Below are positions 27,324 to 50,135 of a stretch of DNA of 64,000 nt, in pieces. The DNA is from Zootoca vivipara (lineage: Eukaryota), in contig NC_083279.1 in NCBI RefSeq assembly GCF_963506605.1, positions 59,954,001 to 60,018,000 on the forward strand. The letters run 5' to 3'. Numbering within the stretch: the stretch's first letter is position 1; the number at the start of each line of letters is the position of its first letter. The position numbers and the translations under genes were made by a program. The notes beneath the pieces are model-generated. The model did no database searches and was not told the origin of the DNA. It saw nothing but the letters and a program-made list of their open reading frames with translations.

Positions 27324-28750
27324 ATAGCATCATAGAATCATAGAATCATAGAGTTGGAAGAGACCACAAGGGCCATCCAGTCCAACCCCCTGCCAAGCAG
27401 GAAACACCATCAAAGCATTCTTGACATATGCCTGTCAAGCCTCTGCTTAAAGACCTCCAAAGAAGGAGACTCCACCACACTCCTTGGTAGCAAATTCCAC
27501 TGCCTAACAGCTCTTACTGTCAGGAAGTTCTTCCTAATGTTTAGGTGGAATCTTCTTTCTTGTAGTTTGAATCCATTGCTCCGTGTCCGCTTCTCTGGAG
27601 CAGCAGAAAACAACCTTTCTCCCTCTTCCATATGACATCCTTTTATATATTTGAACATGGCTATCATATCACCCCTTAACCTTCTCTTCTCCAGGCTAAA
27701 CATACCCAGATCCCTAAGCCATTCCTCATAAGGCATCGTTTCCAGGCCTTTGACCATTTTGGTTGCCCTCTTCTGGACACGTTCCAGCTTGTCAGTATCC
27801 TTCTTGAACTGTGGTGCCCAGAACTGAACACAGTATTCCAGGTGAGGTCTGACCAGAGCGGAATACAGTGGTACTATTACTTCCCTTGATCTAGATGCTA
27901 TACTCCTATTGATGCAGCCCAGAATTGCATTGGCTTTTTTAGCTGCTGCATCACACTGTTGACTCATGTCAAGTTTGTGGTCTACCAAGACTCCTAGATC
28001 CTTTTCACATGTACTGCTCTGAAGCCAGGTGTCTCCCATCCTGTATTTGTGCCTTTCATTGTTTTTTTTGCCCAAGTGTAGTACTTTACATTTCTCCCTG
28101 TTAAAGTTCATCTTGTTTGCTTTGGCCCACTTGTCTAATCTGTTAAGGTCATTTTGAAGTGTGATCCTGTCCTCTGGGGTATTAGCCACCCCTCCCAATT
28201 TGGTGCCATCTGCAAACTTGCTCAGGATGCCCTCAGGCCCATCATCCAAGTCATTGATAAAGATGTTGAATAAGACTGGGCCCAAGACAGAACCCTGTGG
28301 CACCCCACTAGTCACTACTCTCCAGGATGAGGAGGAACCATTGATGAGCACCCTTTGGGTTTGTTCAGTCAGCCAGTTACAAATCCACTGAATGGTAGCA
28401 TCGTCTAGCCCGCATTTTACCAGCTTCTTTACAAGAATATCATGGGGCACCTTGTCAAAGGCCTTGCTGAAATCAAGATAGGCTACATCCACAGCGTTCC
28501 CTTCATCTACCAGGCTTGTAAAATGAGATCAAAAAATGAGATCAGATTAGTCTGACATGACTTTTAGTGATCACAGCATTTCTTTCTAGGTGCTCACAGA
28601 CCGTTTGTTTAATGATCTGCTCTAGAATCTTTCCTGGTATTGATGTCAGGCTGACTGGGCGGTAATTGTTTGGGTCCTCTCTTTTCCCCTTTTTGAAAAT
28701 AGGGACAACATTTGCCCTCCTCCAGTCTGCTGGAACTTCGCCTGTTCTCC
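27324..28750 (-). mobile_element. CR1 LINE, 5'-truncated, young
   Basis: 360-aa RT/C-terminal ORF and canonical (ATTCTATG)n 3' tail, seen as CATAGAAT repeats at 27324-27350. Confidence 0.97.
27410..28492 (-). pseudogene. CR1 ORF2 reverse transcriptase C-terminal part
   Basis: [42 protein letters not shown] and LEKRRLRGD. The catalytic FADD reads FADG and the N-terminus/endonuclease is missing. Confidence 0.95.
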
Positions 28751-31649: not shown

Positions 31650-32023
31650 AAAAGGTAAAGGTGAAGGTACCCCTGACCGTTAGGTCTAGTCACGGACGAC
31701 TCTGGGGTGGTGCACTCATCTCGCTCTATAGGCCGAGGGAGCCGGTGTTTGTCCGCAGACAGTTTTTTGGGGGTCATGTGGCCACCATGACCTAAGCTGC
31801 TTCTGGCAAAACCAGAGCAGTGCACAGAAACACCATTTACCTTCCCGCCGGAGCGGTACCTATTTATGTACTTGCACTTTGGCGTGATTTTTGATCTGCT
31901 AGGTTGGCAGGAACAGAGGCTGAGCAACAGGAGCTCGCTCCGTCATGGGGATTCGAACTGCCGACCTTCTAATGAGCAAGCCCTAGGCTCTGTGGTTTAA
32001 CCCACAGCACCAACCACGTCCCT
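31650..32023 (-). mobile_element. Sauria SINE, full length
   Basis: (ACCTTT)n tail, B box GGTTCGAATCCC-like head and 14-bp TSD CCACTTGGAATGTA (31636-31649, 32024-32037). Confidence 0.92.
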
Positions 32024-45626: not shown

Positions 45627-46112
45627 AGTTCATTCATTCATTCCATTTACAGAAGCTGACTATACTGGTAGCTGAATCTTGTTTTAACACTGCCAATGGG
45701 ATAATGTCCTCCAATTTACTTCCATCGCATTGCAATAAATCTGGGTTCTCCCTGACAATTTGGCAAAATCCTCCCCCCATGCCATTTGAACAACGAAAAC
45801 CAGTAATTTTCCTGACATATGGCAAGCCTACCTCCAGTGCACCTGAGGACATCAGGCTATTTCGGGCTGCATGCTCGTGACATATTTTGCTACAATTCCC
45901 AGCAGAAAGAAATGGGCAGAGAGCTGAGGATAAGAAACAATCAGAAGCCCTCCAGCTTCCGCTGTCTGAGGCAAATACCTTACACTATCTAATGGTAGGG
46001 CTGGACATCTTTGAAGTGAAGTTGATAGCAACATTATAAGCAGGCTTCTCACCAGATGCAATCATTTTTGAAACACATGTTGACTGTTGAATTGAATATT
46101 TTGTAATGCTAT

Positions 46113-46539
46113 TGTCACGGTGGCCGGAGAAGGCTACTTCAGAGTAACGACTCTACACAGCTCTGCATTTTGTCTTTTATTGGTGCTGAGTATTTACAGT
46201 GCTAATGGCAGTGCTATTTACAAAGACACATCTGTTCAGCTTGAATCAGAACCTCCAAGTGGCTTTTGGCGCGTCTTGCGCCAGCATAACAACTTGGGGA
46301 GACCCATCCTCTTCCCCCGACGCTTTCTGCGAAGTTCCGGAGTTGGGGGGACTGGCCTGCCCCCCTTCCTTCCCCCTTCCTGTCCCACCTGGGACGATGG
46401 CTCTTCTACCCTGCCAGAGCCTTGGACACCACTTCCTGTTTCCCCACTTGAGCTGGAGCTTTCCCTCTTTTCAGCCTCGCTCGGGGCTGGGCTGGAACTC
46501 AGGAGGGGAGGGGCTTCGCGATATCCCTTGCCCCTCACA
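46113..46539 (-). mobile_element. Solo LTR (427 bp; probably Ty3/Gypsy), family B
   Basis: TGT(C/G)A...T(C/G)ACA termini, perfect 5-bp TSD GCTAT (46108-46112, 46540-46544), minus-strand AATAAA at 46176-46181, and CpG-rich sequence (young). Confidence 0.92.
46236..46538 (-). other. LTR-encoded open reading frame (100 codons, no initiating ATG; putative C-terminal module of a retroelement protein)
   Basis: Open from LTR base 2 to TGA. The C-terminal motif is conserved with the ORF at 49465-49740 via synonymous codons. Confidence 0.65.
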
Positions 46540-46660
46540 GCTATATTTCAAAATTAATACATTTCAGTAGCTTTCAGCATTTGAAATTTATGAATCAGGA
46601 ATATGGAATTCCAAAAGAACATGTTTTTTAATTAACAAAATGCTAATCTTTTGATTTCCA

Positions 46661-46770
46661 GAGGACTAGCCGTGTCAGTCTTTTATGGCAAAAACAAGTT
46701 TTGCAGTACCATAAAGACTAACAAATTTATTATGGCATAAGCTGTTGTCCCCTTCATCAAGTTCATGAAG
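46661..46770 (-). mobile_element. Old Penelope pseudo-LTR remnant
   Basis: TAGCCGTGTCAGTC...GTACCATAAAGACTAAC...GGCATAAGCT...CTTCATCA is collinear with 1487-1600. The hammerhead is degenerate. Confidence 0.6.
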
Positions 46771-48919
46771 CATTATCCTGAATTATAGATTGTACAAAGT
46801 GAGGTCAGAGGGAAATGAAATGCAGAAAAGTACAATGATAATTACATACTTAACAGTGGTAATTCACAAAACAGTTGGTGAATTAAATTTTTGGTATTTC
46901 ATATAATGGAATCAACAGATGCTAAAAGTTCCGTTCAGCATTTTAAACTTTGTGGGTCTCTCCCCCCCCCCCCCGCATCCCATGGAATTTGAACACCTCT
47001 GTGAGGTATTTGCAATTAATGTGAAATATGACCCCCAAGCTACCTTTAGCCCTCTTTTGTTCTGCACAGAGGAAGAGATATACTGAAGTTACAAACATTC
47101 AAGTGCAAGGAATGCACAATATAGAAATTAAACAGGAAGGGATTGCTTTACATCTATTGCCAAGGCTGCATTTAAAAGGCAACTCATATCAAACTGGCAG
47201 TGCATGCGTTGCATGGGAGAGTGCTTGTTTACCACCATGGTTGGAGGCAGTATACCTCTGAATCATAGCTGTCAAGTTTTCCAGAGATATAGACTAAATG
47301 AGCAGCTGACCTGATCCAGTATCCTTTTTTGGTCTTATGGTGTTTGGATCCTGAGGTGCCTAAGGAAAGCATCAAGCCTAAGGTTTAGAAGAGGTGCTTT
47401 TTGCTCTCAGGAGATAAGCCATTTTAATCTTTCTGAATATGTTCCTCTTGCAGGTGAGTCTATGAGAAACAGCTTTGTAAAACAGAGAGACAGCTTTACA
47501 TGCAGAATTTTTTTTAAAAAAACCTTCACTGTGGGTGCTTACGGAACTCAATTCCCTTCCAGTGAGATGATCAGCCACTGTTTGAGGAAATAAGGCAGAA
47601 TTATTCCTGCAGCCACGTACCTCTGAAAATAATTGACACTAGTATCTCAGTTAGATTGCATTCCCCTACAAAATGGAGTGATTTCAGCCAGGTGTTGCCA
47701 CTTTCTTAAATGCTGTTTAATTAGTGCTATCATTTATTGTTTTAATTGATAGCTGCATGCAGTTGTTATGGTGCTTTATTGATTGTATACTTCCGTGATT
47801 ATGCATGGCGTCTGAGAAGCCATTTGAGCACCCGCTGCTTTTAAGACCTTGACGATTTTCCTGGAGAAGCCAATAAAGAAATACATACCCTAACCCTGCC
47901 ACAACAATAACTTGCAGAGGCAAGTGTGTTGCAGACTTCCACATAAAAGATTCTGGCCATTTCAGTTCATTGATTTAGCCGTGTGCCCTGCATTTCAATG
48001 TCCTGCACAGCTCGTGTTATTTTATTTTTCTTTAAGAGTTCCTCTTTTCTTTGCTTTGCTTGTTAGGGGAGAGAACAGTCAAAAGAACTGAAATCCTATC
48101 CCTCTGTCCTTTAGGTATTTAGAATTAGAAATTTGCTACTATTGTGGCTGCAGTTTCCCATCTTAGACAAATGCTGCAAATTGAACTTCAAGCTTTCTAG
48201 AGTAGACAGATTTGCCACAAGAGGCCTCCCCCCAAAAAAAACTCTCTCTCAAGTCCTCTTACTGAGCTATTGTGCTTGAACTCAACAGGCATCCTGAAGG
48301 CTTTTTAACTACAGTTTCTTTTCAATCATTTATCCCCCGCCCTCGCAATCAGACCACGTTTGACAAACCAAAGGTCACTATTCCATTGCAAGGGCCTTTG
48401 CCAGATATTAGATTTAAATCACTTGTATTGCATAAGAACTGAAGCAACTGGTTGAAGTATCTAATCAGGGGATATTTATCAAGCAGAATAGCTGCTTACT
48501 AATAAGAAAAGCAGAATGGGGAAGGAAAGCTTGATATTGCTGACTTTCTCTCAGATCAAGATTATACGTAATTTCCCAACCCTTATGTGCCAACTCACTC
48601 AGTCAAATGGTAAATGATTGCAGACAGACAGACAGTTTTGCTGTGCAAGTATGGCTAGATTTTGCATTTCTTGCCACTCTTTCAAATGGATCTAGTGCCT
48701 TGTACCTCTATAATGAGGACACGGTGGGTGTGAGTAACTGCCAAGAACATTAATTTGTGAATGTCTGGCCAAATAGAGATTCCTGAGCAGAGTGGGCTTA
48801 TAATGATGACTGAGACAGGAATTAATTTTCTTTTTCTACATCATATAATCTAGTCCAGCTGTCTCCCACATCATGCTCTCAATAAATTTTAGAGTACAGT
48901 TCCCAACATGCCTGGTCAC

Positions 48920-49009
48920 CATAGCTGCCAAGTTTTCCCTTTTCTCGCGAGGAAGCCTATTCAGCATAATGGAAAATCCCTTTAAAAAAGGGATAACTTG
49001 GCAGCTATG
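48920..49009. mobile_element. 90-bp hAT-type MITE (second copy)
   Basis: 3 differences from 1277-1366; perfect 8-bp TSD CTGGTCAC (48912-48919, 49010-49017). Confidence 0.9.
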
Positions 49010-49078
49010 CTGGTCACTGTCAGGGTGCCTCGGTGGCTTCACACGAGTAAAAGCTCCAAACTCCATAACTGGCTTTTA

Positions 49079-49414
49079 CAGAGTGGGTTAAACCACTGAG
49101 CCTAGGGCTTGCTGATCAGAAGGTCGGCGGTTCGAATCCCTGTGACGGGGTGAGCTCCCGTTGCTCGGTCCCAGCTCCTGCCAACCTAGCAGTTTGAAAG
49201 CATGTCAAAGTGCAAGTAGATAAATAGATACTACTACAGCGGGAAGGTAAATGGCGTTTCCGTGTGCTGCTCTGGTTCGCCAGAAGCGGCTTTGTCATGC
49301 TAGCCACATGACCTGGAAGCTGTACACCAGCTTCCTCGGCCAATAACGCGAGATGAGCACCACAACCCCAGAGTCGGTTACGACTGGACCTAATGGTCAG
49401 GGGTCCCTTTACCT
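49079..49414 (+). mobile_element. Sauria SINE (slightly 5'-truncated)
   Basis: GGTTCGAATCCC B box, body homologous to 31650-32023 and CCCTTTACCTTT tail. Confidence 0.92.
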
Positions 49415-49464
49415 TTTTATTATATACATATGTACAAAGGAAAAGCAGAAAAGTCCATGACCGT

Positions 49465-49807
49465 TCAGTCCGAGTCAGAATCCAGAAGTGCCTGTCGTCG
49501 GGACTGCCTCCAACAAAGTAGCCTTAGGGACCTAAATCTCCTCCTCTGCTCCCAACGCTTTTCACCTCTGCGTAACTGGGGGGATGGAGGGACAACGTCC
49601 CCCTCCCCTCCTGAGCTGCTCAGTTGCTTCTGCCCAGAAACCTCCCCTTCCGTAGCGCTGCGATCTGACGCTCCCGACCTCCCCTGTGGGTGTTCCGAGC
49701 TGTCAGCATCCCTCCTCCTGCACCATCTCCCTAGGGTCACCCCTGTCTGAGAGCCCCGGCACCGCTGTGCTGGGCTCTCTGCTGACCCCTAGTGGTGGTC
49801 CCCTGAC
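49465..49807 (-). pseudogene. LTR-encoded reading frame with one frameshift (~49710)
   Basis: VRGPPLG...MVQEE (frame from LTR base 2) joins DADSSE...VPPSPQLRRGEKRWEQ...LLCWRQSRRQALLDSDSD* if one G is removed. Confidence 0.6.
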
Positions 49808-50135
49808 AGTCACTGACCATGCTGGTTGTAGCTGGTTGAAGTTGGAGTTCAAAACAACTGGAAGACATTGTGTTGAGCAAGGCAACATGGACCTTTATTG
49901 TGACATATGAAATGCTTCAGCAGAAACATGTCCTATTTGCAGGAGAAAATAAAATATTTGTTCATTTCTCAAGATTTACATATTGCATGATTGTAATGAA
50001 ACCTCAAAGCTGTTTACAAAAAGAAGAAAAGAAACACAGGGGATATTTAATAATTATATTTCTAAATGTACAAATGAGAGGCTTGGGCTGATGATATTAG
50101 TTCTAATGATTCATCATAATCACAACATCAAGACT

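Follow-up and report, generated by a model that had tools for sequence, protein, structure and literature searches.

How can a long terminal repeat (LTR) that stands alone, with no gene of its own, come to carry a conserved reading frame? The question is raised by two LTRs, here called B and C, in a 64,000-nt stretch of the Zootoca vivipara genome (NC_083279.1, positions 59,954,001 to 60,018,000; hereafter the window). A preliminary description of the window, made from its letters only, had proposed that B and C are solo LTRs sharing a protein motif under purifying selection. Solo status was borne out, as both LTRs are flanked by 5-bp target-site duplications (TSDs). We have found that B and C are LTRs of self-priming chromoviruses (Ty3/Gypsy) that belong to the Tf1/sushi type, and that the block of their frame made of a Pro-rich start, a basic cluster and LLCW is under protein-level purifying selection. 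That the pol frame of these elements reads through into the LTR, and is selected there, we regard as nearly certain. A solo LTR makes no tail protein because it has neither an ATG nor an upstream frame, and the solo LTRs of the window are by-products that produce no such protein. The account as a whole, in which the selected pol end preserved in B and C belongs to a chromatin-tethering tail with repeats predicted to dock on LEDGF or HRP2, is in our judgment probable.

Parent elements and the course of the pol frame

The genome searched comprises 1.44 Gb. The family of LTR B is very young (40 copies scored from 2191 candidates are 99-100% identical), and relatives of LTR C are 68-93% identical and thus represent an older subfamily. 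Thirty B-family loci were sorted into 10 solo LTRs, nine 5' LTRs and 11 3' LTRs. Copies of B with two LTRs are approximately 5.8 kb long and encode gag, protease, reverse transcriptase (RT), RNase H, integrase, an SH3 domain and a chromodomain. In protein P0001, Pfam detected RVT_1, RT_RNaseH, Integrase_H2C2, rve, SH3_Tf2-1 and Chromo (residues 957-1002), with gag and protease lying upstream; the chromodomain at the integrase C-terminus matched PF00385 with 27.3 bits (cut-off 25.1). Gag followed by the order protease, RT, RNase H and integrase, LTRs with TG...CA ends, and a 5-bp target duplication are all as in the Tf1/sushi group. An 11-nt stretch of the LTR is perfectly complementary to a site 2 nt behind the 5' LTR in 15 of the 16 LTRs found (26 loci were surveyed, 10 of which had no LTR found, and the one miss had no leader). 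Five variants of this self-primer covary on both sides, and the pairing is present in the RNA fold. Priming by 11 nt of the element's own RNA is the Tf1/sushi mode (10.1101/2022.12.06.519325, available text). The position of the self-primer would place the start of the element RNA at the base matching 46260; RNA reads on the element are thin (268, 594 and 1728 in three runs of one study) and do not map this start.

Three observations on the copies may be added. At L062:627 (L numbers denote our loci and P numbers our proteins), 44-68 RNA reads per run span the 5' end of the LTR into varied flanks, which suggests host transcripts entering solo LTRs. L067 (G000:C9:56404776-56407463), a B copy of 2.7 kb with an internal deletion and both LTRs, has kept a frame that is open into the 3' LTR. 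Judged by eye, most older copies with internal sequence (L084-L106) are situated no more than a few Mb from a chromosome end, and young copies look dispersed.

In all seven two-LTR B copies, the frame that terminates within the 3' LTR (296-1229 codons) starts inside the element. At the junction of polypurine tract and LTR it reads G-V-D-V-R, as it does in all 11 3' LTRs among the 30 loci, and an internally deleted copy of the C family (L068) is open from the chromodomain across the junction into the LTR. Because pol continues in frame past the polypurine tract and into the 3' LTR, the whole of U3 (about 280 nt) is coding, and the stop of the tail lies some 25 nt into R. Two ways into the frame had been put forward, from pol through the polypurine tract or by splicing; the former is what these copies display, and splicing is not needed. 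Within the window, the frame of B is open from LTR base 2 for 100 codons to its TGA, and that of C is broken once, as had been described, its motif-bearing frame being open from 49788 to 49465. The LTR end dictates the first three codons (VRG), and the last eight share their nucleotides with the self-primer and its flank. The shared VRG start, which had been read as evidence for a protein, is the fixed end TGT-x-A-G-G of both LTRs; the att motif of Sushi is given as TGTYANR in the accessible part of an LTR survey (PMC3601003). Because U3 is coding over its full length, LTR evolution in this clade is not readable as regulatory only.

In order to compare the blocks of B and C, they were anchored at start and stop; 18 residues are identical, 11 of them with different codons, close to the 17 and 10 counted by hand before. 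Genome-wide, 28 distinct blocks were picked by their LLCW pattern with no selection for the stop, and 27 of them end at the same codon, which goes beyond a chance likeness of the central block. The stop is followed by AATAAA at 54 nt in B and 43 nt in C, where about 45-55 nt had been estimated. Across the 28 blocks, anchor codons included, third positions are more variable than second positions (0.36 vs 0.19, p 0.002). The ratio of nonsynonymous to synonymous change (dN/dS), pooled over non-independent pairs of 12 open-frame copies of different subfamilies taken from 41, was low in the chromodomain (0.06) and the U3 motif (0.10) and higher over the whole LTR part (0.32) and in the spacer (0.44). 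In four pairs that reuse no copy, the corresponding ratio of proportions (pN/pS) for the U3 motif was 0.15 (Fisher p 2e-4 to 1e-9). The other sense frames of the same pairs gave 1.09 (+1) and 3.0 (+2), and the antisense frame that shares third positions gave 0.34, as expected. The U3-only block had a pS of 0.67, which is near saturation, against a pN of 0.10, a gap seen only in the pol frame and the antisense frame mirroring it. The protein-level purifying selection proposed for the LTR is thereby upheld.

No Pfam family matches the LTR frame of B or C. A single-sequence PDB search with the B tail returned a chance match only, a word-based protein search with it found nothing among proteins of 675-2151 residues, the same kind of search with P0043 found four other proteins, and the ESM Atlas gave no usable match. 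The block had not been recognised as a described domain of vertebrate Gypsy elements; coding into the LTR is not new in kind (see plant CRM elements below). Two details of the motif were rejected. At the putative phosphorylation site [ST]P-x-x-R, Ser/Thr gives way to Ala in L090, L091, L096 and L097 and to Val in L122. The SDSD end, proposed as an acidic feature, varies (GSAPD, GTEPD, GSVPD) and overlaps the self-primer.

FxGF repeats in the tail behind the chromodomain

The tail after the chromodomain comprises approximately 210 residues. Between chromodomain and LTR it holds one to three repeats composed of W-x-x-[VI]-F, an acidic linker and F-x-G-F; because they lie upstream of the LTR, these are absent from solo LTRs and were invisible in the preliminary description, although they tell more about function than any other part. 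An FxGF occurs within 600 nt of the chromodomain at 69 of 75 anchors (not de-duplicated), against none of 13 in a tail-less sister clade. Among 84 distinct matches, 73 have [VIL]F 8-10 residues before FxGF; the linker measures nine residues in 61, eight in 11 and ten in one, and is lacking in 11, several of which are off-frame chance matches. Linkers average 2.9 D/E, 3.6 S/T and 0.1 K/R, and a CK2-type site ([ST]xx[DE]) is present in 30 of 34. In most repeats W-x-x-[VI] is preceded by D/E. The repeats are under selection (dN/dS 0.15 and 0.12 in the 12 open-frame copies), and Pfam gave no match for the 35 repeats submitted.

The class of motifs that bind TFIIS N-terminal domains (TNDs), known as TND-interacting motifs (TIMs), does so more strongly when phosphorylated by CK2. 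A TIM consists of a helix, an acidic Ser/Thr linker of 8-16 residues and FxGF, often in series, and the FxGF is needed for LEDGF/HRP2 (PMC9987994, available text). The linkers of the 73 repeats fall within this range. The TIMs of JPO2, MLL1, IWS1 and PogZ, also called integrase-binding-domain (IBD)-binding motifs (IBMs), share with the tail repeats a hydrophobic stretch ending in Phe, an acidic Ser/Thr linker of 8-10 residues, FxGF and a serial arrangement; unlike these, the tail repeats sit on the integrase of a mobile element and mostly lack Glu at position -2, and the likeness is one of sequence. Because the strict IBM consensus D/E-x-E-x-F-x-G-F (PMC8022399, available text) is mostly not matched, we class the repeats as TIM-like and not as TIM members. 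When a profile of 34 repeats was compared with 177,635 PDB sequences, rank 1 was the JPO2 motif in a LEDGF-JPO2 fusion (5yi9, E 0.29). A Podarcis repeat aligned to LRRIF...FAGF of JPO2, spanning the helix, linker and FxGF of that protein (E 1.3, rank 2 of 2), a weak match in which the pattern [WF]xx[VIL]F falls on LRRIF. The host genome contains an HRP2 IBD exon, whose best named match is from a lacertid lizard (97%).

Type I chromodomains have three aromatic cage residues (PMC6317226). The tail-bearing elements have lost two of these and so fall outside type I: the first and third aromatics are replaced by non-aromatics in P0001, P0043, P0045, P0050 and P0194. A second chromovirus clade of the same genome (L127-L137, e.g. 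G000:C18:2853896) has the full aromatic cage and a stop directly after the chromodomain, and this tail-less clade is a natural control for targeting studies. In a rough tree of integrase ends (33 rows, midpoint root, some long branches), the tail-bearing rows formed one group with support 0.82. A search of 1.84 billion protein representatives gave 181 matches, mostly to the chromodomain only; the same tail layout was found in Podarcis proteins and in other proteins less than 50% identical, with LLCW ends kept in P0043 and P0045. P0091 of Podarcis muralis has a repeat that fits the strict consensus after a more canonical chromodomain, a layout hinting that the motif predates the loss of the cage.

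Coding into the LTR has a precedent. In plant CRM group A, according to the accessible part of its description, pol extends into the 3' LTR and encodes a putative targeting domain there (PMC3059260), a trait common to CRM and the lizard elements. In group A, however, a CR motif replaces the chromodomain, priming uses tRNA-Met and targeting is to centromeres, whereas in the lizard elements the LTR block amounts to a short basic motif that Pfam does not match. Because they keep the chromodomain and self-prime, the lizard elements are not members of group A. With sushi-ichi and the Tf1/sushi group, so far as the available descriptions go, they share gag, the order from protease through RT, RNase H and integrase to the chromodomain, the 5-bp TSD and 11-nt self-priming, and to these they add some 210 post-chromodomain residues, FxGF repeats, a cage-less chromodomain and an all-coding U3. 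Fish-like chromoviruses have a short basic tail that may run about 25 residues into the LTR, judged from protein only, which suggests that short LTR read-through may be common among chromoviruses. The C-terminus of six fish-like proteins (P0062, P0093, P0108, P0138, P0176 and P0178) consists of a basic stretch of RGRP type, a Gly-rich part that resembles the junction, and S-P-x-[FY]. Of the two parts of the lizard tail, the LTR-coded one varies a layout already known; the TIM-like array is less expected and lends itself more readily to testing. No description of FxGF repeats in a retrotransposon integrase was found in the literature searched, with subscription papers, Repbase and Dfam outside the search. 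The main text of the LTR survey that includes Sushi, in its available part, mentions no reading frame (PMC3601003), and the accessible text of the TND review has no word beginning 'transpos' (PMC9987994).

Proposed mechanism and alternative explanations

The tail is likely to act in chromatin tethering or nuclear access. It would stay on integrase after protease processing and serve as its tethering module, in which the two or three repeats are predicted to dock on the IBD/TND of LEDGF or HRP2, taking the place of methyl-lysine reading. Phosphorylation of the linkers by CK2 may assist docking, and integration would thereby be biased to transcribed chromatin. The LTR-coded basic/LLCW block may add nuclear import or a contact with DNA or the nucleosome; for its basic part, a nuclear localization signal or a chromatin role is plausible from sequence. 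Lentiviral integrase binds LEDGF, a chromatin reader by which HIV selects its integration sites, through folded domains. It uses LEDGF to reach transcribed chromatin, as stated in the part of the review available (PMC9987994); the same host domain would serve the lizard tail, there through the proposed mimicry of a short host motif. We tentatively suggest that a lacertid Ty3/Gypsy clade dropped methyl-lysine reading, evolved an array of host-type LEDGF/HRP2 motifs, and gained a second selected module across the whole of U3. If true, a vertebrate LTR retrotransposon would have converged on LEDGF/HRP2, reaching the lentiviral tether by copying a short host motif. For chromoviruses with cage-less chromodomains, the partners that guide site choice have not been identified (PMC6317226). 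An answer that can be tested directly comes from this clade, with short peptides to be set against a well-studied host domain, and with thousands of very young insertions and a tail-less sister clade as control in the same genome.

The LTR could instead be conserved as DNA or RNA, through the att end, the promoter and the self-primer, its open frame being a tolerated read-through. This does hold at the two ends of the frame, three codons at the start and eight at the stop, where the att motif and the 11-nt self-primer with its covarying site are found. LLCW may also be subject to promoter constraint, its codons lying approximately 20-32 nt before the inferred RNA start. Two further points weigh against selection on the protein: the copies used for dN/dS were chosen for their open frame and share ancestry, and in 30 old C-family LTRs chosen on DNA only, third positions of the motif were not enriched when shared changes were compared with private ones (p 0.34-0.68), the spacer giving p about 0.05. 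Yet the gap between pS and pN in the U3-only block is confined to the pol frame and its mirror, third positions vary above second positions, and LLCW is kept in proteins less than 50% identical, and we consider conservation as DNA or RNA very unlikely to explain the frame. A separate small gene of the nef or sag kind, with access by splicing or through a start codon of its own, is more improbable still. Rare sense GT-AG joints exist, one in the LTR (L062:273-477) and one in pol (L062:2661-3806), each supported by four reads from a single run (X15) of the three, but the LTR joint removes the motif instead of giving access to it, no ATG opens the frame, and the frame is in phase with pol in all copies examined; this candidate was rejected.

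With pol read-through under selection retained, the tail might still be real and its repeats bind some other partner: another TND (IWS1, TFIIS, ELOA or MED26), ATG8 or a trafficking adaptor. An acidic W-x-x-[VI] stretch is the pattern by which an LC3-interacting region (LIR) binds ATG8, and the D/E before W-x-x-[VI] in most repeats recalls it. Several results count against LEDGF/HRP2 in particular. The strict IBM consensus fits only three of the 84 repeats, and Thr predominates at position -2 (22 of 34), although phosphorylation could offset Thr/Ser where Glu is expected. Neither JPO2 match in the PDB is significant, and a profile of repeats with 8-residue linkers matched no TIM there. In one Podarcis-type branch (P0194, P0049) the repeat is degenerate and the protein ends differently. 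Complex prediction for the lacertid HRP2 IBD (P0005, residues 462-547) with a 32-residue repeat speaks neither for nor against binding (score 0.11, mark 0.34, in a run with no alignments and a tool unproven for peptides). However, an LIR requires no FxGF at a fixed distance of 8-9 residues, FxGF is special to LEDGF/HRP2 recognition in the available text of PMC9987994, and the repeats lie directly after the chromodomain, where chromovirus targeting domains sit according to the accessible part of PMC3059260. We judge a different partner unlikely and put forward LEDGF/HRP2 as a possible partner, a prediction held with reserve.

Features of the window

Positions of the LTRs and their parts are collected in the table. 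LTR C reaches 791 nt because a SINE-like repeat (short interspersed element) of about 335 nt, presumably a Sauria SINE, is inserted right after its AATAAA.

Table. Solo LTRs B and C and their parts in the window (window positions).
Feature	Position	Strand	Remarks
Solo LTR B	46113..46539	-	427 nt, TG...CA ends; TSD GCTAT at 46108-46112 and 46540-46544
LTR-coded last 100 codons of pol and stop (LTR B)	46236..46538	-	Frame open from LTR base 2 (46538); TGA 46238-46236
Conserved block of B	46236..46352	-	Pro-rich start, basic cluster, P-K-L-L-C-W, stop
11-nt self-primer of B	46250..46260	-	Complementary to primer-binding site; inferred RNA 5' end (U3/R border) at 46260
AATAAA of LTR B	46176..46181	-	
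Solo LTR C, older subfamily, split by SINE-like insertion	49018..49808	-	TG...CA; TSD GTCAC at 49013-49017 and 49809-49813
LTR-coded pol end in C	49465..49807	-	One break, between about 49740 and 49700
Conserved block of C	49465..49593	-	
Predicted self-primer of C	49479..49489	-	Placed by position alone (25 nt upstream of where the stop ends), from the B-type self-primer; no 5' leader of the C family found
AATAAA of LTR C	49416..49421	-	Abuts the insertion
SINE-like insertion in R/U5 part of LTR C	49083..49416	-	About 335 nt; inverted copy near 31657-32005; 90% match in loci L098 and L113

Host-gene domains were absent from the 60 open reading frames of the window that were scanned (of 153). 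RT fragments of the type found in long interspersed elements, together with a GIY-YIG fragment, lie on the minus strand at 27413-28528, 7283-7756 and 1796-2239. Adjoining LTR C is a 92-nt near-palindromic repeat (48920-49011) that resembles a miniature inverted-repeat transposable element; a 97% identical copy occurs at 1277-1368, and further copies were seen at other loci.

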